The notes: generated by a model not told the origin, from the letters alone. 32,839 nt of DNA from Pseudomonadota bacterium (GCA_043820105.1 JBDREC010000097.1:1-32839), one strand, 5' to 3'. Counted from the stretch's first letter, positions 8,415 to 32,839 are shown. Translations and numbers: made by a program.

Positions 8415-8708
8415 ATGACTGAAAAGATTTATGTGGGAAACTTATCCTACACAGTAACAGATGAATCACTTGAAGAACTTTTTTCACAATGTGGAAAAGT
8501 TGAATCAGCAAAAGTTATCACTGATCGTGATTCTGGCAGAAGCAAAGGTTTTGGGTTTGTAGAAATGTCATCAAGCCAAGAAGCAGCAGCTGCAATCGAA
8601 AAATTTAATGGTACAGAATTCGATAATCGTGAGATTAAAGTTTCTGAAGCTAAGCCAAAAAGCGACAACCGCAGAGGCGGCGGCGGCGGATTTCGTTCAA
8701 GATATTAG
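8415..8708 (+). CDS. RRM (RNP-1) RNA-binding protein with Gly-rich tail
   Basis: RNP2 IYVGNL, RNP1 KGFGFVEM and RRGGGGG tail; TAGGAG RBS. Confidence 0.95.
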   Translation: MTEKIYVGNLSYTVTDESLEELFSQCGKVESAKVITDRDSGRSKGFGFVEMSSSQEAAAAIEKFNGTEFDNREIKVSEAKPKSDNRRGGGGGFRSRY

Positions 8709-8729: not shown

Positions 8730-8766
8730 AAAAAAAGGCGCTCATTTATTTGAGTGCCTTTTTTTT
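8730..8766. terminator. Intrinsic terminator, probably bidirectional
   Basis: A-run, GGCGCTCA, loop, TGAGTGCC, T-run, between convergent genes. Confidence 0.85.
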
Positions 8767-8973: not shown

Positions 8974-11307
8974 TTATTTTAAAAGGTTCAAACAGATCTT
9001 TTCAGCTGTTATAGGCATTGTTTTGATTCTTATGCCCAATGCATCTTCAACTGCATTAGCAATAACAGGAGCAGAAGGAATCATTGTGTGTTCTCCAACA
9101 CCACGGGCTCCAAAAGGACCATCAGGTTGGGGTGTTTCAATGATAATTGGTACAATTTTTTCAGGGATGTCGAGGGCAGTTGGAATTTTATAATCAGTAA
9201 AATTTGGATTAAGCATTTTTCCTTTATCATCAAAACGCATGTCTTCAAATAAAACTGTAGCAAGACCTTGAACTATTCCTCCAACAATTTGACCTTTAAC
9301 TAGATCTGGATTAATCGCACATCCAGCGTCCACTGCTAAAACAACCTTTAAAACATCAAGTTTTCCAGTCCTTTTATCAATTTCAACGGTTGCAGCACTT
9401 GCTCCAACAGTATAATGTACATTTGGCTTTCCACCCTGGCTTGTTTCTGGATCAGATAGAGCAGAGGCAAATTCTGGTATAAAGCTACCAGTACCCATTA
9501 TTGGTCCACCTTTATACTGACCTGTATCAGTCATAATACCATTTATAACAAAGTCTTTTAAGGGAAGTTCAAAACCCGGATTTGTTGTGCACTTAACCTT
9601 TTCATCTTCTAAATATAAGGTATCTTTTTCAAGACACATTACTTTGTGTACAACATCAAATATTCTATCTTTTGCCTCAAGTGCTGCCCTTTTAACAGCA
9701 TTACCACAACCCCATGTAACATGAGAACCAACTGTTTGCCACTCATAAGCATTTCTATCCGTGTCTGGAGTTTCGACCCTAATTTTTTCAACAGGAATAT
9801 CCAAGACCTCAGCAGCGATTTGAGCCATAACAGTTAGATAGCCTTGCCCTATTTCCATACCAGCGACTGTAATATTTATAGAAGCATCTTCATTGAATTT
9901 TAAAAAGGCACAACTTCCAGCGTTAGGCGGCATTGCAGGAGCTTTCCAAAATAGAGAAAAACCTTTTCCTATTGCCTTGTTTGGATCTTTTGATTTTTCT
10001 TTTTTGCCCCATTCAATTTCTTTTTCGACTTTTTCAATGGCTTCGGCTAGGCCGCATGGATTCATTTTAGCACCGTATGCTAAAATATCCCCACCTTTTA
10101 TAGCATTGATCTTTCTAAACTTAACAGGATCCATTCCAATTTTATCAGCCACACGATTAATGTGAGACTCTAGACCAAAGTGAAATTCTGAATAGCCAAA
10201 ACCTCTATAAGGCCCACCAGGAGGTAAGTTTGTATAAATACAAAGCGAGTCAATAGAAACATTATCAACTTTATATGCGCCTGTAGCTGACAAGCCACCT
10301 GCATTAACAACATTGGCACCATATTCCACATAAGCCCCAGCGTCCCAGTAAAGATCATGTTGCAGAGCTGTTATTTCTCCTGTTTTTTTAACGCCAATTT
10401 TAATTTTAGCTAAAACACCTTGGCGCTGATAAGTATTATAAAATTCTTGTTCGCGAGACCATTTTACTTTTACTGGATGTCCTTTTACAGTGGTAGCAAG
10501 GGCTGCTCCTAAAATTTCCATAGAAACCCCAGCTTTTCCTCCAAATCCACCTCCAACATAAGGAGTGATTACTCTGATATCTTTATGAGTAAAACCAAGG
10601 GGAGCTAAAGTTTCAGCAAACAAATTTCTTTGAGTAAATGGTGACTGTGAAGCTGACCACAATGTAAGCCTTCCTGCGTGATCATTAAGACCAACTATCA
10701 CATGCGGTTCAATAGCACAATGAGCATATCTTGGAACCTCATAAATATCTTCCAAAACAAAATCAGCTTCTTTAAATCCTTTTGTAACATCACCTTTTTT
10801 AGTTTTTCTATGATGAGCAACATTTGATTTTCCGGTCGGAAAAAACCAGGGAACATGTTCATAATTTTCCAGATCAGGATGAATTAAACCAGTTTCTTTT
10901 TTGATAGCTTCCATCTGATTTAAAACAGGTTTTAAAACTTCATATTTAACTTCAACAAGTTTAGCTGCTTTTTTAGCAATAGCAGGAGTTTTTGCTATAA
11001 CTGCTGCTACTTGTTCACCAACAAAACGAACCCTATCTTGAGCAAAAATATATCTGTCTTTCATATACAGACCAAATTTATAAGGAAAGTCCTTGCCTGT
11101 AATAACCTTAACAACACCCTCAACCTTTGAAGCCTTGCTAGTATCGATCCCTTTAATAATCGCATTAGCGTGTGGACTTTCAACAATATGAGCATGCAAA
11201 AGATTTGGCCCAAAATTTATATCATCAACATACTGGGCAACCCCTGTAATTTTTTCAAGCCCATCAATTCGTTCTGGCGACTTTCCAACATGTTTGAATT
11301 TTGTCAT
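8974..11307 (-). CDS. Xanthine dehydrogenase-family molybdopterin-binding subunit
   Basis: GKSPERIDG.EKITG, HCAIEPH, VGGGFGGK, YRGFG, EIGQG, GQIVGG..QG, DYKIP and GARGVGE (catalytic Glu). Confidence 0.95.
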   Translation of the reverse strand: MTKFKHVGKSPERIDGLEKITGVAQYVDDINFGPNLLHAHIVESPHANAIIKGIDTSKASKVEGVVKVITGKDFPYKFGLYMKDRYIFAQDRVRFVGEQVAAVIAKTPAIAKKAAKLVEVKYEVLKPVLNQMEAIKKETGLIHPDLENYEHVPWFFPTGKSNVAHHRKTKKGDVTKGFKEADFVLEDIYEVPRYAHCAIEPHVIVGLNDHAGRLTLWSASQSPFTQRNLFAETLAPLGFTHKDIRVITPYVGGGFGGKAGVSMEILGAALATTVKGHPVKVKWSREQEFYNTYQRQGVLAKIKIGVKKTGEITALQHDLYWDAGAYVEYGANVVNAGGLSATGAYKVDNVSIDSLCIYTNLPPGGPYRGFGYSEFHFGLESHINRVADKIGMDPVKFRKINAIKGGDILAYGAKMNPCGLAEAIEKVEKEIEWGKKEKSKDPNKAIGKGFSLFWKAPAMPPNAGSCAFLKFNEDASINITVAGMEIGQGYLTVMAQIAAEVLDIPVEKIRVETPDTDRNAYEWQTVGSHVTWGCGNAVKRAALEAKDRIFDVVHKVMCLEKDTLYLEDEKVKCTTNPGFELPLKDFVINGIMTDTGQYKGGPIMGTGSFIPEFASALSDPETSQGGKPNVHYTVGASAATVEIDKRTGKLDVLKVVLAVDAGCAINPDLVKGQIVGGIVQGLATVLFEDMRFDDKGKMLNPNFTDYKIPTALDIPEKIVPIIIETPQPDGPFGARGVGEHTMIPSAPVIANAVEDALGIRIKTMPITAEKICLNLLK

Positions 11308-11759
11308 TTCACCACCTCCTTAATCGCCTTAATAATTTGCTCATAACCTGTGCATCTACACAAGTTGCCAGCAATAGCTTCTTTTATATCTTCTTCTGAT
11401 GGTTTTTTATTTTCTTTTAATAGTTCAGTAGCAGACAGCACTATTCCAGGAGCACAAAATCCACATTGAAAAGAATTGTTTTTTAAAAATGATTTTTGAA
11501 GCTTTGATAGTTTTGCCTTATTCAGTCCTTCTACTGTAACAATTTCCTGACCATCTACTTCAATTGCCAATATAAGACAGCTTCTTGCAGTTTTTCCATT
11601 TAGTAAAATTGTACATGTACCGCAATCACCTCTTTCGCAACCTGATTTTGGACTCTTTACGCCAAGCTTTTCTCTAATTACATCAAGAAGTATTTCATTT
11701 GCTTCAACATCAGCAGAAAACTTTTCGCCATTTAGTTTAATATTAATTGTTTTTTTCAC
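11304..11759 (-). CDS. Xanthine dehydrogenase-family (2Fe-2S) subunit
   Basis: GCERGDCGTC..SC, QCGFC and NLCRC. Likely GTG start at 11759 overlaps the upstream TGA (GTGA) behind GGAGG. Confidence 0.95.
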   Translation of the reverse strand: MKKTINIKLNGEKFSADVEANEILLDVIREKLGVKSPKSGCERGDCGTCTILLNGKTARSCLILAIEVDGQEIVTVEGLNKAKLSKLQKSFLKNNSFQCGFCAPGIVLSATELLKENKKPSEEDIKEAIAGNLCRCTGYEQIIKAIKEVVK

Positions 11760-12604
11760 TTTCCACCTCCCAAACATGCATCTTCAAACATAACTCCAAT
11801 CATATGACTTCTATATTCTTTAGAAGAACGAATATCAGTAATAGGTGAAATTTCTTTAAGCAAAACATCTTTTGCCTCACTAATAAGTTTTTTATTAAGA
11901 GTTTTATTTCTTAATTTATCTTCTGTTTTTAAAGCCCTAAAAGGAACAGGGCCAACAGCTCCACAAGCAAGCTTATATTCCTTATTATTTAAAGCTAGAA
12001 AGGCAACAGAAGCTTGAGCAAGGTCTTCGCCTTTATATCTGCCTAGTTTATGATATGAGCCATAGCTTGCATTTTTTGACAATGGAATTTCTATACCCAC
12101 AACAATTTCATCACTTTTTAAACAAGACTTTTTAGGTCCAGCAAACCATTTGTTAATGTCTACTACTCTTTCATTTTCTGAACTTTTTACTAAAACTTCC
12201 GCTTCATAAACAAGTAAAGCAGGAGCTCCATCGCAGCTTGGAACAGCAGCACAAATATTTCCAACGAGTGTTGCCCTATTCCTTAGCCCCTTAGATGCAA
12301 CAGTCTTTGAAGCTTCACAAAGAATTGGAATTTCTTTTTTAACAAGCTTTGATTGAATAAGCTGATTAAAAGTTACCAAAGCACCTATAAACAGCTTGCC
12401 ATCTCTTAATTCAATTTTATCAAGGTCTTTAATTTTTTTAATATCAATAACAGCATCACATGTAACAATATCTTCTTTTAACCATACAATCAAATCAGTA
12501 CCACCTGCTAGAATCTTTGCCTTGCCTTTATACTTATCAAGCAAAGCACAAGCTTCCTTTATTGATTTAACTTTAAAATATTCAAAATCATTTGATATTG
12601 GCAT
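11756..12604 (-). CDS. Xanthine dehydrogenase-family FAD-binding subunit (CoxM/CutM-like)
   Basis: LAGGTDL, RNRATLVGNI, PSCDG and PITDIRSS.EYR. Confidence 0.95.
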   Translation of the reverse strand: MPISNDFEYFKVKSIKEACALLDKYKGKAKILAGGTDLIVWLKEDIVTCDAVIDIKKIKDLDKIELRDGKLFIGALVTFNQLIQSKLVKKEIPILCEASKTVASKGLRNRATLVGNICAAVPSCDGAPALLVYEAEVLVKSSENERVVDINKWFAGPKKSCLKSDEIVVGIEIPLSKNASYGSYHKLGRYKGEDLAQASVAFLALNNKEYKLACGAVGPVPFRALKTEDKLRNKTLNKKLISEAKDVLLKEISPITDIRSSKEYRSHMIGVMFEDACLGGGK

Positions 12605-12679
12605 TTTTATTAGCTCCTTAAAATATGTGTACAGCGTACAAAGTACGGTCTAAACATTTAACTATCTATTTTACACTTT

Positions 12680-12705
12680 GGATCCTGAAACAAGTTCAGG
12701 ATGAC
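12680..12705. repeat. 26-bp REP-like palindrome, copy 1
   Basis: GGATCCTGAAACAAGTTCAGGATGAC with stem ATCCTGAA/TTCAGGAT; identical to 17618-17643. Confidence 0.9.
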
Positions 12706-12713
12706 CTCCTGAA

Positions 12714-12736
12714 CTTACCACTTACCACTTACCACT
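12714..12736. repeat. Heptamer repeat (CTTACCA)x3
   Basis: Three exact copies abutting the cyclase stop codon. Confidence 0.8.
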
Positions 12737-13556
12737 AATCTTCTGGTGGTGTAAAAGCCACAACCCTGCACATACTTGATTCCAGCTCAATTCCTCTTAA
12801 TGGAAATAAGCCTATCCATACTCTTTTATTGCTAACTTCATTAAGCTCACCACCTAAGTTTTCAGCATGAACAAGTTTCTTTGGAAAAAGCTTAAGATGC
12901 ATTACTTGATAGTAAATCTCTTGTGGAAAAAGTTCATCCCAACCTTTGCCATATTTATCTTTAATTTTTGCTTCACAATCTGCAAAAGCAGCAGGATGCC
13001 AAGATCTAATAATTGTGTTCATTGGATGATCAGCGCTTCCACAGTCAACACCTATCCATTTTAATTTCATATCAAGAGCCCATTTATGAAATTCTGGATC
13101 TGGTCCTGGATGCCTTACAAAATATCTAAGTTCGTCAGATTCTTCCTGATCCCAACCATATCTGTTATACCCAGTATTAATAATTAAAATATCACCTTTT
13201 TTAACTTCAACTTTATCCATAATCATTTCAGGTGAATATAAATCATAATCACCGACTTGATCTGAAATATCTGCAACAGCTGCCTGACCTATCCATTCAT
13301 GCAAAGGAACATCTCCAATTGTTCTTCCATTGGCATGAAAGTGAATTTCGCCGTCTATGTGTGTTCCAACATGGTTACTAGTTGTAACGATTTGACCATT
13401 AGCCCCTTGTCCCATATGAGCACCAGCTAATCTTTTAAAATATTGCAGACCAAGTGGCATATAGCTTGGCCATGGGGGAGTGTGTATTGATAATCTTTGA
13501 GTTAAATCAAAAACTTTCATATTATCCATAAATTTAAAGAATTCATTGTTGTCCAT
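12735..13556 (-). CDS. Cyclase-family (kynurenine formamidase-like) metal-dependent amidohydrolase
   Basis: HVGTHIDGEIH is a variant of HxGTHxDxPxH; also GDILIINTG, WIGVD, ENL and S.CRVVA. Confidence 0.9.
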   Translation of the reverse strand: MDNNEFFKFMDNMKVFDLTQRLSIHTPPWPSYMPLGLQYFKRLAGAHMGQGANGQIVTTSNHVGTHIDGEIHFHANGRTIGDVPLHEWIGQAAVADISDQVGDYDLYSPEMIMDKVEVKKGDILIINTGYNRYGWDQEESDELRYFVRHPGPDPEFHKWALDMKLKWIGVDCGSADHPMNTIIRSWHPAAFADCEAKIKDKYGKGWDELFPQEIYYQVMHLKLFPKKLVHAENLGGELNEVSNKRVWIGLFPLRGIELESSMCRVVAFTPPED

Positions 13557-13579
13557 TTAGTACTCCTTTGTTTTTATTT

Positions 13580-14983
13580 CTATTGCAAAGACTCTGCAAA
13601 GCCTTTAATTGCTTCTATAAATGGTTCAACTGATGCATTTAAAACACCAGCTCCTACTTGCCCTATTCCTGGTTCTTTGTGAGCTACTCCTGTGTCAATA
13701 AAGGGCAGAATATTTTTTTCAATAACTTTTATAAGATCAATTCCAGTTGGGGTTCCTCTGAAATTTAAATATGGTATTTGATAAACATTATTTTCAGCTT
13801 CTGAGATTTCATACATTTGTTTTGTGTAAGAAATAGCATCACCTGTTGAGCCGCCTACAAATTGAACTATTGCAGGACTTGCAGCTATTGCAAAGCCTCC
13901 AAGCCCAGCAGTTTCTGTTATTGAACTGTCGCCAATGTCCGGATTTGCATCTTCTTTTGTAAAGCCAGGAAAAAAGAGTGCGTCTGGAACCAAAGCAGGT
14001 CCAGTGAACCATTTTTTATCAGTACCTGCTATTTGAATGCCAAAATCTGTTCCATTTCTACTCATTACAGTTAGAATTGAAGAGTTTTTGACTTTTCTAG
14101 CAGGATCTAAAACTGATTTGCATGCTGGCATTGATAAATTTAAGAAGAAATGATCATTGTTGTTTATAAAATCTAAAACTTTTTCGCAGGTTTCTTTGTC
14201 AGCACAGGTCTTAACAATTGCTGGAGCAAGTGTCCTGTAAAGCAAAGACGTAGCAGCCCTATTTCTATTGTGAACTTCATCTCCCATATGAAGAGCCTGA
14301 GCAATGATGTTTTTTAAATCAATTTTACCAAGGATTTCAATCGCTGTTTTTAATGTTGGATAAAGATAATTTTTCATCCAATTCAGTCTTTCTATAACAT
14401 CATCACTATATGCACCATATCTTAAAACTTTTCCAAGGCCTTCATTCATTGTACAATAAGTAAAATTTCCATATTCTTCATTCTTTAAAATAAAAACAGG
14501 CATTGATGCAGAAACTATTCCTGCCATTGGCCCAACAGAACTATGCTCGTGACAAGGAGCGTATTCAATTTCATTTGAAGAGGCGAGTTTTTCAGCTTCT
14601 TTATCATTGCTTGCCAATCCTTCATATTTTAAGGCACCAATTATTGCACCTCTCATTGGTCCACACATTCTATCCCATGTTATTGGGGGTCCAGCGTGAA
14701 GGATAAGATTTTTTTTCATCCCGGGAATAACATTTATAGCAAGGTCCATTCCAACTAAGTATGGTTTTCCATTTAAAATAATATCACAAGCTTCTTTATT
14801 AGCCTTTTTTATCTTATCTTTATTCTTATTAATTTTACTCAAAATCATAGGATCAACATCAATACCAGGTTTCCAATCAACTTGTACTGATTCAACACCC
14901 TCGTTATCCAAAGTTTCTTTGAAAGATTTTAATCCAACATTGATAACCTTTAGTTCTTTTTTAAAAAGTTCATTTATAGACAT
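13580..14983 (-). CDS. DUF1116 protein (YahG/YlbE/AllG-like)
   Basis: LHAGPPI.W..MCGPM.GA, PCHEH..VGPMAG, NEGLGKVLRYGA, MGDEVHNRN, NPDIGDS.ITET.GLGG and G.AHKEPGIGQVGAG; N-terminal VINVGL.SF module as in YahG. Confidence 0.9.
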   Translation of the reverse strand: MSINELFKKELKVINVGLKSFKETLDNEGVESVQVDWKPGIDVDPMILSKINKNKDKIKKANKEACDIILNGKPYLVGMDLAINVIPGMKKNLILHAGPPITWDRMCGPMRGAIIGALKYEGLASNDKEAEKLASSNEIEYAPCHEHSSVGPMAGIVSASMPVFILKNEEYGNFTYCTMNEGLGKVLRYGAYSDDVIERLNWMKNYLYPTLKTAIEILGKIDLKNIIAQALHMGDEVHNRNRAATSLLYRTLAPAIVKTCADKETCEKVLDFINNNDHFFLNLSMPACKSVLDPARKVKNSSILTVMSRNGTDFGIQIAGTDKKWFTGPALVPDALFFPGFTKEDANPDIGDSSITETAGLGGFAIAASPAIVQFVGGSTGDAISYTKQMYEISEAENNVYQIPYLNFRGTPTGIDLIKVIEKNILPFIDTGVAHKEPGIGQVGAGVLNASVEPFIEAIKGFAESLQ

Positions 14984-15010
14984 TTATTTCTCCTTTTATG
15001 TTTTCTTCTC

Positions 15011-15097
15011 ATTAATTATTAATTATTAATTGTTAATTACTAATTATTTTACGTTTTCAAATAATTAATAACCAATAATTAATAATTAATAATTAAT
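15011..15097. repeat. Inverted heptamer arrays (ATTAATT)n / (AATTAAT)n
   Basis: Five units, a spacer of about 12 bp, then five complementary units, between fdrA and the DUF1116 gene. Confidence 0.8.
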
Positions 15098-15110
15098 TTT
15101 GGAGCTTTAA

Positions 15111-16646
15111 CTAAGCAACCACTTCAAGACTAAACTCAACAGCTGCAGCATTCGACGGCAGAACAACAACTCCGAGCTCCTCCAAAGCATTTTTCACAAG
15201 GCTTCTATTCTGTGGATCTTTATCTGTTCCTGTTATTGAGCAAATAACTGGAACTTGACCAAGGGCTTCTTTTAGTACATCCTTTAATTCATCAATAGGA
15301 TTCATATTTGAACCATAACCTAAGACAACATCAAGCAAGATCAGAGCTGTTTCAGGGTCTTTCGCTTCTTCTAAAATTCTTTTATTTCTTAAGGTAAAAT
15401 CAATCATTGGATGAGGTCTGCCAACCGTAAATTCATCTTCTCCAAGATCAATAATTGTGTGGGCTACACTTTTCATTGAGTCTTCAAGTTGATTTAAACC
15501 TGGTAGCGGTGCATTAGAATAAATTTCATTTAATTTAGTTTTGCAAATAAGTTGAGCTTCTGTACAAAATGTGCCGCCTGCGAACAAGCCTCTTATATAT
15601 TTTTGCTGATCATTTAATTTCTCTTTAAAAACTATGGCCTTGGTTTTTATTTCAATACTTCTTGCACTAAGATTATCTTTTAATTTTATTGGATTCACTT
15701 CTTTTGAATAACAGACAGCGGCCATTGCGGCCTCTTCTAAGGTTTCAGCTTCATACACTTTATTGCCCTTTAGAAGACCTTTTGGAGCAGATAAAAATAT
15801 TGAAACAATTGGCTTTTCTGTATTTTCAAGTTCTAAAGCAATCTTTTTAATAACATCTTCATATGGAGGTTTTGATACAAGTAAAATTACTTTTGTATTT
15901 TCATCATCAATTAAAGCCTTTATGCTTTGAATAAACATAAGACCAGAAACTTCCTTTTTAACATCACGGCCGCCAGTTCCGATTGCTTGAGATATTCCAC
16001 AACCATTATTTGAAACAATTGTAGTCACTTCTTGCAAACCTGTTCCAGCTGCTGCTACAACACCAATATCCCCTCTATTTACAACATTTGCAAAAGCTAA
16101 TGGGATGCCATTTATAATAGCTGTTCCACAATCAGGTCCCATTACTAAAAGCCCTTTTTTGTTTGCGTATTCTTTTAATTCAACTTCTTGCTCTATGCTA
16201 ATATTATCTGAAAATAGCATAACATGCAGATTGTTTTGAAGTGCTTTCATTGCCTCAATAAAGGCGTATTTTCCAGCAACTGAAATCATGACCATATTTG
16301 CATCTTTCATTTGCCCTAGAGCGCCATCTATGCTTTTTGGAGTGAATTCCTCACCATCATCTTGGCTATCTGATTTCTTAGCTAAAATTTCATCTGCTTT
16401 TAAAAAAGCAGCTTCTAAAACCTTATCATTATCTGACTTAACGGCAATTAAAAGATCAGAATCCTTTGCGTCTTTGAAGTAATCAACAAATAGATTCGAG
16501 TTTTTTAAGATTGATATATTTTCCTTTGTCCCCATTACAACAGCAGCATCTTCAACACCTTCAAACTCAGCAAGCTCTTTCCCAACAATCATAAGTGTTA
16601 CAGAATCAAAATAGGCTCCTTTTAGGATTTTGCCTTTTATGGTCAT
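15111..16646 (-). CDS. fdrA: FdrA/YahF/AllF-family protein (succinyl-CoA synthetase alpha-like fold)
   Basis: YFDSVTLM, MGT.EN, FSDN, MGPDCGTA, GTGLQE, IGTGGRD, SKPP, GGTFC.E, DLGEDEFTVGRPHPMID and DVVLGYG. Confidence 0.93.
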   Translation of the reverse strand: MTIKGKILKGAYFDSVTLMIVGKELAEFEGVEDAAVVMGTKENISILKNSNLFVDYFKDAKDSDLLIAVKSDNDKVLEAAFLKADEILAKKSDSQDDGEEFTPKSIDGALGQMKDANMVMISVAGKYAFIEAMKALQNNLHVMLFSDNISIEQEVELKEYANKKGLLVMGPDCGTAIINGIPLAFANVVNRGDIGVVAAAGTGLQEVTTIVSNNGCGISQAIGTGGRDVKKEVSGLMFIQSIKALIDDENTKVILLVSKPPYEDVIKKIALELENTEKPIVSIFLSAPKGLLKGNKVYEAETLEEAAMAAVCYSKEVNPIKLKDNLSARSIEIKTKAIVFKEKLNDQQKYIRGLFAGGTFCTEAQLICKTKLNEIYSNAPLPGLNQLEDSMKSVAHTIIDLGEDEFTVGRPHPMIDFTLRNKRILEEAKDPETALILLDVVLGYGSNMNPIDELKDVLKEALGQVPVICSITGTDKDPQNRSLVKNALEELGVVVLPSNAAAVEFSLEVVA

Positions 16647-16657
16647 TATCTTCTCCT

Positions 16658-16742
16658 AATTGAAAATTAATTATTAATTGTTAATTATTGATTATTTCCC
16701 GCGTCCTTAGAATAATCAATAATTAACAATCAATTTTCAATT
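16658..16742. repeat. Long AT-rich inverted repeat built from heptamers
   Basis: attgttaattattgattatt pairs with aataatcaataattaacaat around tcccgcgtccttag; outer arms are aattgaaaatt / aattttcaatt. Confidence 0.8.
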
Positions 16743-17596
16743 CTTAATGCAAATAAATCCTTATCACAACTTAATTTATCTTTGTTATCAATTGTATAAA
16801 CAAGACCAGTTAAAATATCTGATCCTGAAGTATTACCAATATCCATACAAGCATCAATGCTTGCCTTTAGTTCTTGTTTATCCTGTCCGTAAAGAGATAA
16901 AATAAGCTTCTTATGCACATCTATCACTTTGCCCTCTTGAGCAAGCTTTAAAAAGCTTGAAGACAAAGCTTCATCTTTTTTTGCAATAGAAAAAATACTT
17001 TCTTTTAAGTTACTTAAATCAACATCTTTATTTTTTTCAATTATATTTAAAGCAAGCAATAAGCCAGCTATGAAATCATCACCACTTGGGGTTAAGCCAA
17101 AACCTAGGCCTTTTATTTTATATATCCCATGCTCTAAATTTGTATTAAATAAACTCTTAATTCCATCTTTTAATTGCTTTGCCATATTCTGAGCAAAACC
17201 TATTTTAAAATTAAGAAGCCTTTTTTCATCAAAAACAAAGACAAGGCTTGCTTTATCTGCCTTTTGAACTAAATATTGTTTCAAAAAACCTACATTCTTC
17301 TTAAAATTTTGGAGCTTTTCTAAGTTAATTTCAAACTGAGAATGATAACGCTCTTCTTTAGCAAAATTAAATACTAAATCTTTAATTTTCACGGAATCTT
17401 TTGAAACTTCAAGCGAATCAATATTATATAAATCAAGATCTTGAATCTGAATATTATTAGGCCCAAGGCATATTGAAGGATCAGTAAGTGATACAAAATC
17501 ATCACCACACACAAAATTAGCTACTTTTTTGAAGCAAGAATGAAGCCTGTAAGATCCAGGCTTCACATTATCACCTATTGAAAGTAGTTTTTGCAT
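16730..17596 (-). CDS. DUF2877 protein (YahE/YlbF/AllH-like)
   Basis: GLGFGLTPSGDDFIAG and IGNTSGSDILTG motifs; adjacent to fdrA and DUF1116. Confidence 0.9.
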   Translation of the reverse strand: MQKLLSIGDNVKPGSYRLHSCFKKVANFVCGDDFVSLTDPSICLGPNNIQIQDLDLYNIDSLEVSKDSVKIKDLVFNFAKEERYHSQFEINLEKLQNFKKNVGFLKQYLVQKADKASLVFVFDEKRLLNFKIGFAQNMAKQLKDGIKSLFNTNLEHGIYKIKGLGFGLTPSGDDFIAGLLLALNIIEKNKDVDLSNLKESIFSIAKKDEALSSSFLKLAQEGKVIDVHKKLILSLYGQDKQELKASIDACMDIGNTSGSDILTGLVYTIDNKDKLSCDKDLFALRIEN

Positions 17597-17617
17597 TAAA
17601 ACTTATCCTTACTCATG

Positions 17618-17643
17618 GGATCCTGAAACAAGTTCAGGATGAC
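17618..17643. repeat. 26-bp REP-like palindrome, copy 2
   Basis: Identical to 12680-12705 and in the same orientation. Confidence 0.9.
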
Positions 17644-17681
17644 AGCTCAATATACGCCGTACGCTGTACACCGTACTATTC

Positions 17682-18029
17682 TTACGCTTTATAAAACACA
17701 AAGCCTTGATTACTCTTAAACTCATCTTCTCTAACAGTTTTAACTTCACCTTTGACTTTCATACCCATTTTAGGTTCATCAATATCAAGTTGACCTAAAA
17801 CTTTAACGCCATTTTCAAGTTCAACAATACCCAGGCTTAAAGCTTCAACTTCAAAGTCAGCTGGTAAAGCAAAAGTTTTTGTAAAAGTAACAAGCTTGCC
17901 ATTTTTAGGAAGTGGGACTTGCTCAAATTTATCGTACATGCCTTTTGAGCATTTTTTACAAATCATATGATAAGGGTAATTTAGATATCCACATTCTGTA
18001 CATTTATATGCATAAACATTTAAACTCAT
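17682..18029 (-). CDS. DUF35 Zn-ribbon / OB-fold protein
   Basis: CTEC..CKKC zinc ribbon followed by an OB fold (GKLVTFT, GIVELENG). Start moved to ATG 18029 behind AAGGAGG. Confidence 0.9.
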   Translation of the reverse strand: MSLNVYAYKCTECGYLNYPYHMICKKCSKGMYDKFEQVPLPKNGKLVTFTKTFALPADFEVEALSLGIVELENGVKVLGQLDIDEPKMGMKVKGEVKTVREDEFKSNQGFVFYKA

Positions 18030-18031
18030 GA

Positions 18032-19207
18032 TTACACCTCCTTTACGAAAGTAAGGCAAACAACGTTGTTTCCAAAACCTCCAAAGTTACAAGTAAAGCC
18101 AACTTTCGCATCTTTTACCTGTCTTTTTTTAGCTTCACCCCTTAATTGAAGAACTATTTCGTGTGCTTGGCCAACGCCAGTTGCTCCAACTGGATGTCCC
18201 TTTGCCTTCAAGCCACCAGATGTGTTAATAGGGATTTTTCCACCAAGCTTTGTTTCGCCTCTTTCGAGTGCTAAATGCCCTTCACCTTTTTTGAAAAAAC
18301 CAACTTCTTCTGATTCAACGATTTCTAGAATTGTGAAAGCATCATGAAGTTCTGCAACATTTACATCTTTTGGTTTTAGCTTTGCCATATCAAAAGACAT
18401 TTTTGCAGCACGCCTTACTGCTAATAAATCAGTTGGTTCTTCTCTTTCAAAAACAGCGTGAGTATCAGTTGCTTGACCAAGGCCAGCTAAGCTGACAAGA
18501 GGCTTATCAAGAGTCTGTGCTTTTTCTTTTGTTGTTAAGATCAAGCAGGCTGAACCATCTGAAACTGGACAGCAATCAAAGAACCTTAGAGGGTCAGCTA
18601 CAACTGGATTATTTGTAGATGCTTCTGGTGAATCAATAATTCCTTCTAAGGTCACGCGTTGATGCAAGTGAGCGTAAAAATTATCCATTGCATGGTCATG
18701 GTTTTTTACAGCAACCATTGCAAGGTGTCTCTCAGTAACTCCATATTTTTCCATATATAATCTTGTAAACATTCCAGCTAAAGATGGAAGAGTCACGCCA
18801 TAAATATATTCAGCTAAAGGATGAGATAAAGTTGACACAAAGTCAGTTGCATCTAAATTATTTACTTCTCTCATTCTTTCAGCACCAATTACCATTACAG
18901 TGTCGCATAAGCCTGAAGCAATCGCTGTATATCCTTGCATAATTGCGCTAGCTCCAGAAGCTGGTCCATTTTCAATGGAAGTTGCTCCAGCTGGTATCAA
19001 ATTCAAAGAACATGTAACAGCAGAAGCCAAGCCAGTTTGAGAGTTAACTCTTCCTGAACCCATATTTGCAACAAAAACGTGATCCATTTTATTTAAGCCA
19101 CAATCTTTCATTGCCATCATACCTGAGTAGGATGCAATTTCAGACAAGGGATATTCAAGCCGTGTAAAACTCGTAATTCCAATGCCTGCTACATATACAT
19201 TTCTCAT
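18032..19207 (-). CDS. SCP2/archaeal-type thiolase-fold protein lacking the N-terminal nucleophilic Cys
   Basis: VAVKNH, PL..FDCCPVSDG, AELHDAFT and NTSGGLKAKGHPVGATG are present; IENGPASG replaces the usual ENACASG. Confidence 0.9.
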   Translation of the reverse strand: MRNVYVAGIGITSFTRLEYPLSEIASYSGMMAMKDCGLNKMDHVFVANMGSGRVNSQTGLASAVTCSLNLIPAGATSIENGPASGASAIMQGYTAIASGLCDTVMVIGAERMREVNNLDATDFVSTLSHPLAEYIYGVTLPSLAGMFTRLYMEKYGVTERHLAMVAVKNHDHAMDNFYAHLHQRVTLEGIIDSPEASTNNPVVADPLRFFDCCPVSDGSACLILTTKEKAQTLDKPLVSLAGLGQATDTHAVFEREEPTDLLAVRRAAKMSFDMAKLKPKDVNVAELHDAFTILEIVESEEVGFFKKGEGHLALERGETKLGGKIPINTSGGLKAKGHPVGATGVGQAHEIVLQLRGEAKKRQVKDAKVGFTCNFGGFGNNVVCLTFVKEV

Positions 19208-19971
19208 TTTTTACCCCCCTCTTCTTTTTTATTATCCTGAATCCACTTCTGAGACATTAAAGCAGTGCCAGTGGGGTCACCCATTGCTCTTGTACAAGCC
19301 ATCAAATCTATTGGAGGTTTTGGAGGATCAGATGGTGGTAAAATCCCAGCTTTTGCTTTTTCAAGAAGCTTTTCAGGAACTGGTCTTCTTCCAACAACCA
19401 ATGTTTCTCTTGCTCTATCAAAAAGTGCCTTTGTAAGTGACCAGGAAGGTGGTCCACCAAGTTCATGCGGAATATGAAAGCGTTTTTCAAGTTTATATTC
19501 AATCATCCATCTTCTAAAACCAATTGGACTTTCTGCTACAACTAAAACCTCTTTTTGCTTTATTATATCAATGTGATATTCCATTTTAGCTGCAAAAGCA
19601 TGAGCACCAATCCTAAGACCTCTTCTTAAGCAAAGAGTGTGATAGCTCATTCCAACATCTTTATCTACTAAGCGACCATTAACAATAGCACAAAGCTCGC
19701 CATCAATTTGAGCAACTAATACATATTCATCTTGAACTCTATATCTGACATAAGATAAAAGTTCAGCATAAACCCTGGCTGCAACTATATCATAATAATC
19801 CCTTTCAACATGAATCAAGGGTTCTACATATTTCATTACGTCAACGGTTTCTTCTCTTGAGATTTGCCTGATAACCATTTCTTCGCCACTTGCTAAGGTT
19901 ACATATTTAGCTGGAAATGGTGGAAATGGATTTTCCACAGGTCTTAATACTTTTTCTAAATCAACAGACAT
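19204..19971 (-). CDS. Hypothetical protein, possible GNAT-like fold
   Basis: MVIRQIS, VLVAQIDGELCAIV and LRRGLRIG resemble GNAT beta1, beta2-3 and motif A. It overlaps the thiolase start (ATGA) and has an AGGAGG RBS. Confidence 0.6.
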   Translation of the reverse strand: MSVDLEKVLRPVENPFPPFPAKYVTLASGEEMVIRQISREETVDVMKYVEPLIHVERDYYDIVAARVYAELLSYVRYRVQDEYVLVAQIDGELCAIVNGRLVDKDVGMSYHTLCLRRGLRIGAHAFAAKMEYHIDIIKQKEVLVVAESPIGFRRWMIEYKLEKRFHIPHELGGPPSWSLTKALFDRARETLVVGRRPVPEKLLEKAKAGILPPSDPPKPPIDLMACTRAMGDPTGTALMSQKWIQDNKKEEGGKK

Positions 19972-20174: not shown

Positions 20175-21449
20175 ATGAACATGGGACTAAAATCATCAAT
20201 TTTTCTAATTTCTTTATCCTTATTACTAATTATTTTTTCATATGGCACTCCATCTGGTTGTGGTGGCACATATGATGAAGCTAATGACTCACGAGTATTA
20301 AATACTAGTGAAAAAACAGCCCTAGATGGAAATGGGGCTGATTTTGATCAAGGTGACTATGGCAAAGAAGTTGGAGAAGATGGCCTTGTTACAAGCCCAG
20401 ACAGGCTTCCTGAAAACTGTGAAAAATATTCGATAGATTCCATCCAAAGTAAAATTAATGAGATTGCATCTTCCACAATTGATGAAAACCAATTATATGA
20501 ATACTTATTCGAAACACTTGATTATTATGGCACAAATAAACGAATGCCAGATAATGAAGAAATCATTGAAAAAGGTCTTTATTTTATCTTGCATTATGCA
20601 GCCCAGGACTTAGAGGAAATTGGAAATATTACACCACTTGTTGGCAACTTGCGGGATTTTATCTCATCAATAGATAATGATCCTAAAAATATGGACAGTT
20701 TTAATTCTACTACCAATTCAGTAGACTTAGAGTATTCCAGCGACAGTTCACAAAGCTTTTCATATTATTTTGATAAATCACTAGTCTCTCCTGCTTTAGA
20801 AGAGAAACAAGGGAGAGCCTACCTTGGGGTTTTAATAGAAGGCTTGAGTGAACTTGAAATTAAATATGAATTTGAATTTTCAGGTCAACATTATGATTCA
20901 GAAAACAATGACACATATTATATTGATGGAGAAGCTGAATTAACCTTAATACCCTTTGAATCAACACCAGATGAAGAAAATCGAAGAATCAACAATGTTC
21001 GTTATTTTTCGCAAACAAATCGCTTTAGCTCAAAAATTATTTCGTATTTAGGAGAAGATCTTATTGCTGAAAAGATAAGTTTTAATATTTCACCTGGGAT
21101 TGTTGCAGAGCTAAAACTGCTGGCATTTGATTTTACAGTTGACAATGGCAATACAAATGATGTCCATGAACTTTTAGAGAAATATAATCTTCTCTTAGAA
21201 TACGCCTTTAACACAAATACAAGTTTCGATGAACTTTTTGATAATGTAAAAAACAATATTGATGAGTTTGATTATGCAGATGAACTTTTCAGCGAACTAT
21301 TAAGCGAAGCCGCTTTACTAAAAATCCAAGAGGATAAACCCTTGGCTCAAATGAGAAATCCATATATTCGCTCAATCAATAACGATGATACAATTACGAT
21401 TTGCGTTGAAGAGATGCCAGAGGAAATCCCCACATATAATTCAAGATAA
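20175..21449 (+). CDS. Hypothetical acidic exported protein, possible lipoprotein
   Basis: Hydrophobic signal then PSGC; AAGGGG RBS. No family recognised. Confidence 0.75.
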   Translation: MNMGLKSSIFLISLSLLLIIFSYGTPSGCGGTYDEANDSRVLNTSEKTALDGNGADFDQGDYGKEVGEDGLVTSPDRLPENCEKYSIDSIQSKINEIASSTIDENQLYEYLFETLDYYGTNKRMPDNEEIIEKGLYFILHYAAQDLEEIGNITPLVGNLRDFISSIDNDPKNMDSFNSTTNSVDLEYSSDSSQSFSYYFDKSLVSPALEEKQGRAYLGVLIEGLSELEIKYEFEFSGQHYDSENNDTYYIDGEAELTLIPFESTPDEENRRINNVRYFSQTNRFSSKIISYLGEDLIAEKISFNISPGIVAELKLLAFDFTVDNGNTNDVHELLEKYNLLLEYAFNTNTSFDELFDNVKNNIDEFDYADELFSELLSEAALLKIQEDKPLAQMRNPYIRSINNDDTITICVEEMPEEIPTYNSR

Positions 21450-21991
21450 TTTTTTTCATTGCATTTGTTTCATTTGCAACAGCAATTGCAGTTGTTTTAT
21501 TTGGTAAAAAGTTTTTATCCAACATCCCAATATTAACCGGAATACTAGTTGGATATTTCTTGTCTATTTTCTTTGGTGTTATTGATTTTTCAATTGTTGA
21601 AAATGCTGCATGGTTTTCCATTCCTTGTGTTGCTTTAACAAAATCGTTTAAGCCACTCTACATGGTAATAGCAGCCTTTACAGCGATCACACTTTCCTTT
21701 TTGGGAAAGTTAGGTGCCATTTTAAAAACAATTCCAATTCCAGTTATGGGTGGCATATTAATTTTGCTATTTGGAATGATTGCAACAATTGGTATTAATT
21801 CCTTGGTTAAGGCAAAAGTAGACCTGTCAAAAGCTCAAAACCTTGTTATAGTTTCTACTATTTTAGTCTTGGGAATCGGAGATATGCAACTTTCAATTGG
21901 AAGTTATTGCCCTGGTGGCATTGGGCTTGCTGGTCTTGTGGGAATTATTTTGAACTACATTTTAATGAAATATCAATCAAAAGATTTATAA
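21440..21991 (+). pseudogene. uraA: Uracil-xanthine (NCS2/UraA-like) permease remnant
   Basis: Open frame from 21440 gives IPILTGILVGY..WFSIP joined directly to VALTK..GKLGAILKTIPIPVMGGI.ILLFGMIA..NLVI. The N-terminus and the central substrate-binding segment are absent. Confidence 0.8.
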
Positions 21992-32001: not shown

Positions 32002-32839
32002 TCAGCTTTTATGCCAAGAAATTGCTTTTTTATTCTGAAAATCTACTCTTACAACTTCTAATTGTGGCTTCCCAAAATTCAGCAATTTTCTGGCCTTTTC
32101 AAGAGTCTTTGATCTTAAAAGTTCCTGCTTTTTACTGATAGCAAGATAATTTCTCTCATTGGTCTCAAGAGTATGCCCAAGCCAAAATGCAGCTTCATCA
32201 CCTGTAAATCCTTTTTCTCTTAACCAAAGATTTACATTCCTTCTTAAATCATGAGGAATAACTCTTCCATCCAGTTTAATATCTGTTTCATTTACAGCAG
32301 TTTTAATCAAGGTGTGGAACGCTCTAATAAATGTTTTTCTTCTAAGCCATTTCTTCAAGATGCCGTCGTAGTATGGAAATAAAAAGGGATATTCTACTAA
32401 TTCAAAATCTTCATTTCTTTTTCCAATCACACCATAGATCTTATCCTTCTTGTGCTTTTCTAATTGAGTCTTAATAAATCTGATAGAGCGTTCAGATAAA
32501 GGAATCTCTCTTGTACCAAGTTCAGACTTAGGGCTAAACCCAAGGCCATAATCCATAGGGCAATCGTCCTTTTCAAATATTCTGATTGAATGAAAGTTAT
32601 CTATAGATGGATACAAGTTATGAGTGCTAAGAGTTGAATCTTCTAAAGTACGCAAGCCAGTTTTTCGACGAAAATGAAAGTGCTCTTTAGTATCATGTGA
32701 AATTAGTGCCATTATAATGAAAAGCATCTCTCGCTTCTGTATAAATTGTTGTATAACAATATTATTATTAAGATACAAGAAGGAGAGACGCAATGAATAG
32801 TTATATTGGAGCAGATTTGCATTCAAAGTCAATAACTTT
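32002..32839 (-). CDS. Tyrosine recombinase / integrase (probably 5'-truncated by the window edge)
   Basis: TGLR, HDLRR, LGH and RNY give the R...HxxR...H...Y catalytic set. The frame stays open to the window edge. Confidence 0.85.
   Translation of the reverse strand, partial: KLLTLNANLLQYNYSLRLSFLYLNNNIVIQQFIQKREMLFIIMALISHDTKEHFHFRRKTGLRTLEDSTLSTHNLYPSIDNFHSIRIFEKDDCPMDYGLGFSPKSELGTREIPLSERSIRFIKTQLEKHKKDKIYGVIGKRNEDFELVEYPFLFPYYDGILKKWLRRKTFIRAFHTLIKTAVNETDIKLDGRVIPHDLRRNVNLWLREKGFTGDEAAFWLGHTLETNERNYLAISKKQELLRSKTLEKARKLLNFGKPQLEVVRVDFQNKKAISWHKS

Follow-up and report, generated by a model that had tools for sequence, protein, structure and literature searches.

The window analysed here, a whole stretch of 32,839 nucleotides (nt) from a Pseudomonadota bacterium (GCA_043820105.1, JBDREC010000097.1:1-32839), contains ten open reading frames (ORFs) on the minus strand between positions 8974 and 19971, which, judged by comparison with other genomes, are a real and strongly conserved functional unit and not a chance adjacency, and which, as far as we have found, make up an undescribed catabolic operon. 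From the first gene to the last, they encode a GNAT-fold protein, a thiolase-fold (thiolase-like) protein, a DUF35 protein, relatives of the Escherichia coli proteins AllH (DUF2877), AllF (FdrA) and AllG (DUF1116), a cyclase-family hydrolase, and the flavin adenine dinucleotide (FAD)-binding, [2Fe-2S] iron-sulfur (FeS) and large molybdopterin-binding subunits of a molybdenum (Mo) hydroxylase (Table 1). It is likely that these genes combine hydroxylation by the Mo enzyme, hydrolytic opening of the ring and an AllFGH-type release of carbamoyl phosphate and an amide. More tentatively, the comparisons suggest that the compound degraded is uracil or thymine, broken down via barbiturate and malonamate, in which case the route would be new.

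A conserved seven-gene core and an optional module

The preliminary description of this DNA listed ten co-oriented genes of these families, in this order and with short or overlapping junctions. We found the ORFs exactly at the positions and in the order given there, and Pfam and NCBIfam searches confirmed the family calls for nine of the ten. Four junctions are overlaps (4, 28, 22 and 4 nt) and five are gaps (85, 83, 127, 23 and 130 nt).

A locus scan with the single FdrA sequence gave no relative, whereas an alignment of four copies of the cyclase retrieved at least 382 confirmed loci, of which the best 80 were kept. All 80 derive from metagenome or single-cell assemblies, and according to the record titles they span Cloacimonadota, Ignavibacteria, Verrucomicrobiota, Bacteroidota, Elusimicrobia, Lentisphaerae, Acidobacteriota, Chlorobiaceae and others. 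The presence of each gene was scored by tblastn with the ten proteins of the window (E-value up to 1e-8, coverage of at least 40%), and many of the misses fall at contig ends. The cyclase was found in 80 loci, the FAD subunit in 74, AllG in 71, the FeS subunit and FdrA in 69 each, the Mo subunit in 66 and AllH in 59, as against 33 for the GNAT protein and 30 each for the thiolase-like and DUF35 proteins; the gene order is the same. Among the 54 loci with enough flanking sequence, the core AllH-FdrA-AllG-cyclase-FAD-FeS-Mo is complete and colinear in 49. The co-occurrence of the sub-modules in other genomes, on which the preliminary description had made its proposal depend, is evident from this colinear core. 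The operon it proposed holds up as a conserved unit, but not as an indivisible set of ten genes: the architecture is a seven-gene core plus an optional three-gene module (GNAT, thiolase-fold and DUF35), which elsewhere is replaced by an amidase and a coenzyme A (CoA)-transferase. The best conserved gene is that of the cyclase, which across phyla is 74–80% identical to the copy in the window.

In a separate sample of 40 unrelated genomes, the cluster was found, whole or in part, in four, which belong to other families; all four encode true FdrA homologs (42–57% identity) surrounded by parts of the same cluster. FdrA is linked to the cyclase in all three of these FdrA-bearing genomes that could be fully assessed, and in the fourth the locus is interrupted by a contig end. 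In three closer relatives of the host of the window (two of the same order, one of the same class) the cluster was not found, and FdrA had only SucD-like matches.

The idea that the ten genes are adjacent by chance and share neither a function nor a transcript is hardly credible: many phyla preserve the gene order, and in the window neighboring genes overlap at four junctions (by 4–28 nt) and are elsewhere never more than 130 nt apart. The one observation in its favor is that promoter-like sites in the window are not enriched over shuffled sequence (46 against 41.7 ± 6.3). Three DNA sequencing runs, with small shares, and no RNA run are listed as containing the sequence.

At other loci, ORFs of IS200, Fic, Schlafen, PD-(D/E)XK, radical SAM and methyltransferase families are inserted within the operon; these are mobile or defence genes and uninformative, and the further families that recur in the flanks are lineage-specific. 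Two variant loci, L070 and L089 (and also L067), have no genes for the Mo enzyme, show the order FdrA-AllG-cyclase-AllH and carry a PbuX-like permease. The variant of the L070 type may take up a ring that is already oxidised.

The AllH/AllF/AllG-like proteins as a putative carbamoyltransferase

The three adjacent genes of the DUF2877, FdrA and DUF1116 families each pass their family model. In E. coli the purified AllF, AllG and AllH proteins constitute an oxamic transcarbamylase, which interconverts oxalurate plus phosphate and oxamate plus carbamoyl phosphate, and they are encoded together with the carbamate kinase AllK (accessible text of PMC11326118). The proteins of the window are 38% (AllF), 43% (AllG) and 25% (AllH) identical to their E. 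coli counterparts, and the alignment of the AllH sequences spans the motifs GLTPSxDD and GxTSGxD. Positions were regarded as family-conserved if at least 95% conserved within the cluster family (64 AllF, 69 AllG and 55 AllH sequences). By this measure 91 of 105 such positions in AllF, 127 of 188 in AllG and 13 of 15 in AllH are identical in E. coli, so that the catalytic core of the trio looks unchanged. The differences are concentrated in AllG, whose 61 family-specific positions are candidates for determinants of a different acyl specificity.

FdrA carries CoA_binding and Ligase_CoA domains, and the preliminary description had proposed CoA activation or acyl transfer for this SucD-like trio. 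Because the conserved residues are mostly shared with the purified E. coli enzyme, transfer of a carbamoyl group to phosphate seems more likely than a CoA ligase activity. The boundary between the FdrA and DUF1116 genes is shifted relative to E. coli: the first ~40 residues of AllG match the C-terminal tail of E. coli AllF (residues 9–39, window positions 14867–14959, against AllF residues 509–539), which fits both subunits touching each other within one complex.

Profile searches found neither a carbamate kinase nor allantoin enzymes in the window, as had been noted before; for the window this is correct, but the genome to which it belongs (G000) carries a carbamate kinase elsewhere (360.5 bits against a cut-off of 358). 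With a threshold of 1e-40, carbamate kinase was detected in 14 of 15 genomes that bear the cluster and in 12 of 36 sampled genomes without it. The 15 comprise G000, the four cluster-bearing genomes of the first sample (4/4) and ten reached via the loci and chosen for long contigs (9/10); the association is suggestive, the related genomes not being independent of each other. G000 also encodes CarB, and it would therefore need no kinase for the biosynthesis of carbamoyl phosphate. No arginine deiminase above cut-off was found in G000, and the context of its carbamate kinase gene is uninformative. Carbamate kinase genes near SucD-like genes were also noticed in five genomes, but in G022, the one examined, the neighbor is an ordinary SucCD pair accompanied by genes of the tricarboxylic acid cycle, and this lead was dropped.

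Besides two typical genes of the transcarbamylase family, G000 has a third, divergent one (G000:C108:18769-19230, a 404-aa frame with 90.5 bits on OTCace_N). Through its product the kinase could also be supplied with carbamoyl phosphate.

The molybdenum hydroxylase and the cyclase-family hydrolase

The Mo, [2Fe-2S] and FAD subunits carry, according to Pfam, the domains of the xanthine dehydrogenase family. The motifs SQSP, GGGFGGK, YRGFG and GEHTM, which we take to be general catalytic motifs of the family, are conserved in 60 orthologs of the Mo subunit. Its scores on the xanthine dehydrogenase models (XdhA/PucD) are all below cut-off: 525.6 against 780, 495.6 against 916 and 403 against 783.65. 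The first enzyme of the classical oxidative pyrimidine pathway is a Mo/FeS/flavin protein.

In the cyclase the metal-binding motif HxGTHxDxxxH is invariant throughout the alignment and aligns with that of kynurenine formamidase. The solved relatives of the cyclase, kynurenine formamidase and isatin hydrolase, are distant (E-values 1e-9 to 4e-3), and on the arylformamidase (KynB) equivalog model it reaches 51.7 against a cut-off of 223.05, matching with its N-terminal half only.

Two alternative accessory modules

The GNAT, thiolase-like and DUF35 genes occur as a block in 29 of the 80 loci, which in some, like the window, precedes AllH and in others follows the Mo gene; a GNAT gene without the other two was found in four loci and in the genome G026. 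In 19 of the 80 loci, mostly of Cloacimonadota, a family-III CoA-transferase is encoded downstream of the Mo gene, in 17 of these together with an amidase-signature enzyme. No locus has both modules. If only the 37 loci with room for both positions are counted, 20 have the GNAT module, nine the CoA-transferase, none both and eight neither. This distribution leads us to regard the modules as two ways of accomplishing one and the same step. In four loci of Cloacimonadota (L015, L016, L044 and L049; e.g. L049:5148-5579), a gene for a HIT-domain protein separates the CoA-transferase gene from the Mo gene.

The best solved relative of the amidase is malonamidase E2 (176.8 bits, E-value 7e-51, residues 72–419 aligned with 53–399, almost the whole length), followed by a generic amidase (141 bits) and GatA (129 bits). 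Malonamate had been predicted as an intermediate before the amidase was compared with solved structures. The Arg residue that follows the Ser nucleophile is shared with malonamidase E2, but it is general to the family and was given no weight. The CoA-transferase is of the dicarboxylate type, with CoA:oxalate (373.6 bits), mesaconate and glutarate transferases as its best models. The resemblance of the amidase to malonamidase E2, next to a CoA-transferase of this type, fits malonamate as the product of the trio.

The first gene of the operon (255 aa) has no profile match at all, and no GNAT domain of Pfam even at an E-value of up to 10. Its family numbers 2935 homologs (E-value up to 1e-3), and among the 120 listed the given names are all "hypothetical protein", without a Pfam domain. 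An AlphaFold (AF2) model built from 26 sequences (mean predicted local confidence, pLDDT, 80; predicted template-modelling score, pTM, 0.76) matches GNAT acyltransferases only, with a Foldseek probability of 1.00 and, in VIA-align, a Z-score of 14.1 and a root-mean-square deviation of 2.9 Å over 160 aligned residues; the language-model atlas likewise supports this fold. The earlier label "GNAT-like" is hence right by predicted fold, and by that alone. The acyl-CoA pyrophosphate-binding motif of GNAT enzymes is R/Q-x-x-G-x-G/A, and residues 117–123 (RGLRIGA) are a near-match to it, with G118, R120, G122 and A123 invariant. Malonyl-CoA decarboxylase is not among the 50 structural matches listed for the model, though it may nonetheless be related.

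The thiolase-fold protein has archaeal-type thiolases (7yvy, 6esq) as its best solved relatives. In the alignment to 7yvy, the window protein has Pro at the position of the nucleophilic Cys (ENGPASG instead of ...ACASG). Pro stands there in all 31 close family members, and Ser in a more distant 32nd sequence (L012); the 32 sequences all retain the motifs HDAF and (K/R)GHP. With Pro in place of the nucleophile, thiolase action via a Cys-acyl intermediate would be impossible, and the thiolase-type cleavage of a C-C bond envisaged earlier is unlikely. The DUF35 protein is closest to 6esq_E, the DUF35 component of the archaeal complex of thiolase and 3-hydroxy-3-methylglutaryl-CoA (HMG-CoA) synthase, and the four Cys residues of its zinc ribbon (C20, C23, C34 and C37) are invariant in 22 sequences.

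Docking of the GNAT protein on the thiolase-like/DUF35 pair was predicted with a score of 0.62, while the best of three controls scored 0.01. Of 80 solved complexes 58 attain the mark used, as do two of 110 mismatched pairs; these counts are approximate, as custom alignments were used. The docking runs agree in at least 64% of contacts, the pLDDT of the scored partner, the GNAT protein, is at least 77, and the thiolase/DUF35 part of the prediction resembles solved complexes; we know of no solved complex of a GNAT protein and a thiolase. In the predicted interface, GNAT residues 118–124, at the near-match to the CoA pyrophosphate loop, lie against the loop 181–201 of the thiolase-like protein, which suggests that the CoA sites of the two proteins face each other.

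Alternatively, an aromatic or heteroaromatic acid could be degraded by way of CoA thioesters: the trio would be an acyl-CoA synthetase forming adenosine diphosphate (ADP), the Mo enzyme would act on the CoA ester in the manner of 4-hydroxybenzoyl-CoA reductase or furoyl-CoA dehydrogenase, and the thiolase-fold/DUF35 pair would cleave a C-C bond. The domains of FdrA would suit such a pathway, as would the CoA-handling families from which the GNAT, thiolase-fold and CoA-transferase proteins all derive, and the nearest solved relative of the Mo subunit is the alpha subunit of 4-hydroxybenzoyl-CoA reductase (331 bits). We nevertheless regard this pathway as improbable. The purified homolog of the trio is a transcarbamylase with which nearly all conserved residues are shared, and the thiolase-fold protein lacks its nucleophile. 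The models of 4-hydroxybenzoyl-CoA reductase are missed by far (alpha 507.7 against 994.55, gamma 152.6 against 257.8, beta 100.8 against 404.55), the beta match moreover being split into two stretches. Finally, the CoA-handling module is optional, whereas the trio, the cyclase and the Mo enzyme are constant, and the transporters linked to the cluster are nucleobase permeases.

The substrate and the proposed pathway

An enzyme of the AllFGH type requires an N-acylurea. A pyrimidine-2,4-dione would yield one if acted on first by a Mo hydroxylase and then by a hydrolase of lactams or amides, and it is for this reason that we propose such a dione as the substrate. The permeases point in the same direction. 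Divergent from the operon, the window contains the remnant of an NCS2 permease, which covers only positions 299–386 of the 389 of the Xan_ur_permease profile and corresponds to residues ~177–415 of a ~418-aa protein in one open frame, the place of the 5' part being occupied by a 424-aa ORF. In NCBIfam it scores higher on uracil permease (98.6 bits) and RutG (89 bits) than on PbuX (49 bits), and it is 49–50% identical to residues 177–388 of the intact, cluster-linked permease of L058. The latter is 87–96% identical to the linked permeases of L052, L060 and L094, and ranks the uracil permease model first, then RutG, then PbuX. The reaction order put forward in the preliminary description, hydroxylation and then hydrolytic opening of a nucleobase-like heterocycle, agrees with both the enzyme families and these permeases.

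In outline, the operon would serve the oxygen-independent catabolism of a pyrimidine-2,4-dione, most likely uracil and/or thymine, with a phosphorolytic, energy-conserving step. It would resemble the classical oxidative pyrimidine pathway, though with enzymes not homologous to those of that pathway. The Mo/FeS/FAD hydroxylase would oxidise C6, with water as the oxygen donor, to give a barbiturate, the ring of which would be opened by the cyclase-family metal hydrolase. The resulting N-acylurea, ureidomalonate (3-oxo-3-ureidopropanoate), would be phosphorolysed by the trio to carbamoyl phosphate and malonamate; here the homology and the conservation of the active site are evident and the substrate is a proposal. 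The unlinked carbamate kinase, whose gene is present, could then be coupled to the pathway and convert carbamoyl phosphate to adenosine triphosphate (ATP), CO2 and NH3. In other lineages the malonamidase-like amidase and the family-III CoA-transferase would turn malonamate into a CoA thioester. As the GNAT/thiolase-fold/DUF35 module alternates with these two enzymes, our guess is that its predicted complex makes the same conversion in the window, perhaps by a CoA-dependent deamidation of malonamate that is pulled by decarboxylation and ends in acetyl-CoA.

An energy-conserving role of that complex is a doubtful conjecture. It would couple the uphill CoA-dependent deamidation to the decarboxylation, and would channel the intermediate much as the archaeal complex of thiolase, HMG-CoA synthase and DUF35 does. 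Equally speculative is the complete scheme that could be built on it, a fermentation of uracil or thymine with one ATP gained via carbamoyl phosphate (by a "ureidomalonate transcarbamylase") and possibly a second via the conversion of malonamate to acetyl-CoA.

Several observations weigh against uracil or thymine as the substrate, or against individual steps. As regards the Mo enzyme, its large subunit stays below every NCBIfam cut-off and is closest, among solved proteins, to the above-mentioned 4-hydroxybenzoyl-CoA reductase, and its motifs are common to nicotinate dehydrogenase, 4-hydroxybenzoyl-CoA reductase, PaoC and others and do not discriminate the substrate. No cyclase-family enzyme is known to open a barbiturate ring. 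A permease is linked to the cluster in only six of the 80 loci (besides the remnant in the window), in each case below the equivalog cut-offs (354.7 against 477), and in L070 and L089, the loci without Mo genes, it is PbuX-like. The genome with L070 (G047) has no ortholog of the Mo subunit (best identity 35%), its permease is PbuX-like rather than UraA-like, and it has no carbamate kinase at an E-value of up to 1e-40. Unlike in E. coli allFGHK, carbamate kinase was found neither in the window nor in any of the 80 related loci, and in G000 it could serve one of the three transcarbamylase-family genes instead. The malonamidase-like amidase belongs to other lineages and not to the window, and amidase-signature enzymes in general share its Ser/Arg motif; what the GNAT/thiolase-like/DUF35 module contributes to the pathway is a guess. 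G000 also has a stand-alone dihydropyrimidinase/hydantoinase, around which no reductive pyrimidine operon is evident.

The same enzyme logic could be applied to another N-heterocycle, either a purine (xanthine, urate) or a five-membered ureide, leading to oxalurate, in which case the trio would be a true oxamic transcarbamylase. The E. coli homolog of the trio does use oxalurate (accessible text of PMC11326118), the PbuX-like permeases of L070 and L089 would fit a purine, CoA:oxalate transferase is the best-scoring model for the CoA-transferase, and among the NCBIfam models the Mo subunit scores highest on two for XdhA. We consider this alternative rather unlikely. The two XdhA scores (525.6 and 495.6 bits) remain far under the cut-offs, the four intact linked permeases mentioned first and the remnant in the window are UraA/RutG-like, and the linked amidase is closest to malonamidase E2. 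Allantoin genes are not present in the window and not recurrent in the 80 loci. On chemical grounds, opening of the pyrimidine ring of a purine would give an aryl-ureide and not an N-acylurea, and the 61 of 188 family-conserved positions of AllG that are unlike E. coli suggest a substrate other than oxalurate. We retain the breakdown of uracil or thymine via barbiturate and malonamate as our working proposal.

The operon in its genomic context

Table 1. Features of the operon and its surroundings in the window.
Feature	Position	Strand	Basis of assignment
GNAT-fold protein, 255 aa, first gene of the operon	19204-19971	-	Predicted fold; no Pfam/NCBIfam match
Thiolase-fold protein, 391 aa, without nucleophilic Cys	18032-19207	-	Pfam Thiolase_N/Thiolase_C_1
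DUF35 Zn-ribbon/OB-fold partner, 125 aa	17682-18059	-	PF01796, 28.9 bits
AllH-like (DUF2877) subunit	16730-17596	-	PF11392, 85.7 bits
AllF/FdrA-like (SucD-like) subunit	15111-16646	-	NF004760, 481.9 bits against cut-off 433
AllG-like (DUF1116) subunit	13580-14983	-	PF06545, 331.8 bits
Cyclase-family metal-dependent amidohydrolase, proposed ring opener	12735-13556	-	PF04199, 111.5 bits against 23.1
FAD-binding subunit of Mo hydroxylase	11756-12604	-	PF00941 and PF03450; no NCBIfam equivalog cut-off reached
[2Fe-2S] subunit of Mo hydroxylase	11304-11777	-	PF01799 and PF00111
Molybdopterin-binding large subunit, xanthine dehydrogenase family	8974-11307	-	PF01315, PF02738, PF20256; below all NCBIfam equivalog cut-offs
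Terminator-like hairpin, 15-bp stem, A-run before and T-run after	8730-8765	.	Consensus match only
UraA/RutG-like NCS2 nucleobase permease, 5'-truncated remnant, divergent from the operon	21503-21991	+	Pfam Xan_ur_permease
Small RRM_1 RNA-binding protein gene, convergent with the Mo gene	8415-8708	+	
424-aa low-complexity ORF, signal-like N-terminus, no known family	20175-21449	+	
Phage-integrase-family ORF, running off the window end	32002-32838	-	

Upstream of the operon, the opposite strand carries the 424-aa ORF, the permease remnant and a gene for a LysR regulator. The GC content of the window is ~33%, that of the operon region 0.33–0.39 as against 0.28–0.35 in much of the flanks. This slightly higher value, together with the integrase-family ORF at the end of the window, fits acquisition of the operon by transfer, and its absence from the three nearest relatives sampled makes such an origin probable. 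It seems that the genome of the window probably acquired the operon horizontally and that the uracil-type permease has decayed to a remnant.

Terminator-like sites number 10 in the window (6.7 ± 3.0 in shuffled sequence), and the sole notable one is the hairpin listed in Table 1, which lies between the convergent RRM and Mo genes and looks like a bidirectional terminator. RRM_1-like genes were also seen, at varying positions, in the Cloacimonadota loci L052, L060, L069 and L094; the proximity is probably coincidental, in lineages that have many such genes.

Significance

If the proposed pathway is correct, it gives a function to a gene set whose cyclase subfamily (E-value up to 1e-80) is present in about a third (34 of 101) of the genomes sampled from one candidate phylum, and which occurs in many other anaerobic phyla. 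In anoxic sediments, groundwater and digesters it would amount to a new fermentation of pyrimidines derived from nucleic acids, with a substrate-level gain of ATP. The recently discovered AllFGH transcarbamylase family would have a second specificity, and one that is the only kind seen in our small diverse sample, where the three assessable FdrA-bearing genomes all have the cyclase link. Genes would be assigned to the orphan activity uracil dehydrogenase, a term not found in the literature searched, which misses most subscription journals. The cyclase family would gain a ring-opening activity and a second, non-homologous barbiturase would be defined, while the predicted complex would be a new kind of thiolase-fold/DUF35 assembly with a GNAT partner.

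No published description of this gene combination was found in the literature searched, most subscription journals being outside its reach, and an earlier description elsewhere is possible; the earlier view of the pathway as undescribed stands to that extent.

Comparison with known systems

Among the closest known systems is AllFGH of E. coli (allFGHK; accessible text of PMC11326118), with which the operon shares three homologous subunits and probably the chemistry, i.e. the interconversion of an N-acylurea plus phosphate and an amide plus carbamoyl phosphate. It differs in gene order (H-F-G instead of F-G-H-K), in that neither carbamate kinase nor allantoin genes are attached, in the position of the AllF C-terminal tail, which here sits at the N-terminus of AllG, and in what accompanies the trio, which is a cyclase-family hydrolase in every case and a Mo hydroxylase in most. 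Oxalurate is probably not the compound it acts on.

The classical oxidative pyrimidine pathway, a rare route that consists of uracil/thymine dehydrogenase, barbiturase and ureidomalonase, leads from barbiturate via 3-oxo-3-ureidopropanoate to malonate and urea (Soong et al., as cited in the accessible text of PMC3758960), and the first two of these compounds are also the intermediates proposed here. Its ring opener, however, has the AtzD/barbiturase fold, whereas the one of the operon belongs to the cyclase/kynurenine formamidase family; barbiturase (PF09663) has no match in G000, which is 92.9% complete, nor in any of 14 control genomes. The ureide would here be phosphorolysed to carbamoyl phosphate and malonamate instead of being hydrolysed to urea and malonate, and the hosts are uncultured anaerobes, as opposed to aerobic actinomycetes.

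Another anaerobic nucleobase route that starts with an enzyme of the xanthine dehydrogenase family is the reductive uric acid pathway, known from E. coli and Clostridioides difficile (XdhD, YgfK, SsnA, YgeW, YqeA and others); in E. coli a ureido group is phosphorolysed in it, and the carbamoyl phosphate so formed yields ATP (accessible text of PMC12507026). No downstream enzyme is common to the two routes: the transcarbamylase is of the YgeW type and unrelated to the trio, and neither a cyclase, nor FdrA, nor a thiolase is mentioned in the accessible text of that paper. The cyclase itself shares with kynurenine formamidase and isatin hydrolase the fold family (PF04199) and the HxGTHxDxxxH metal site, isatin hydrolase being a precedent for the opening of a lactam, but it forms a separate and very conserved subfamily, which is always linked to the AllFGH-like trio. 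The xanthinase pathway of Tong et al. 2023 reportedly involves neither a cyclase nor an FdrA protein.

The accessory module, lastly, resembles the archaeal complex of acetoacetyl-CoA thiolase, HMG-CoA synthase and DUF35 (6esq, 6et9) in the combination of a thiolase fold with DUF35 and in the predicted docking of a third, CoA-using protein. It departs from that complex in having Pro for the catalytic Cys, and in its third partner, which is predicted to have the GNAT fold and is not an HMG-CoA synthase.

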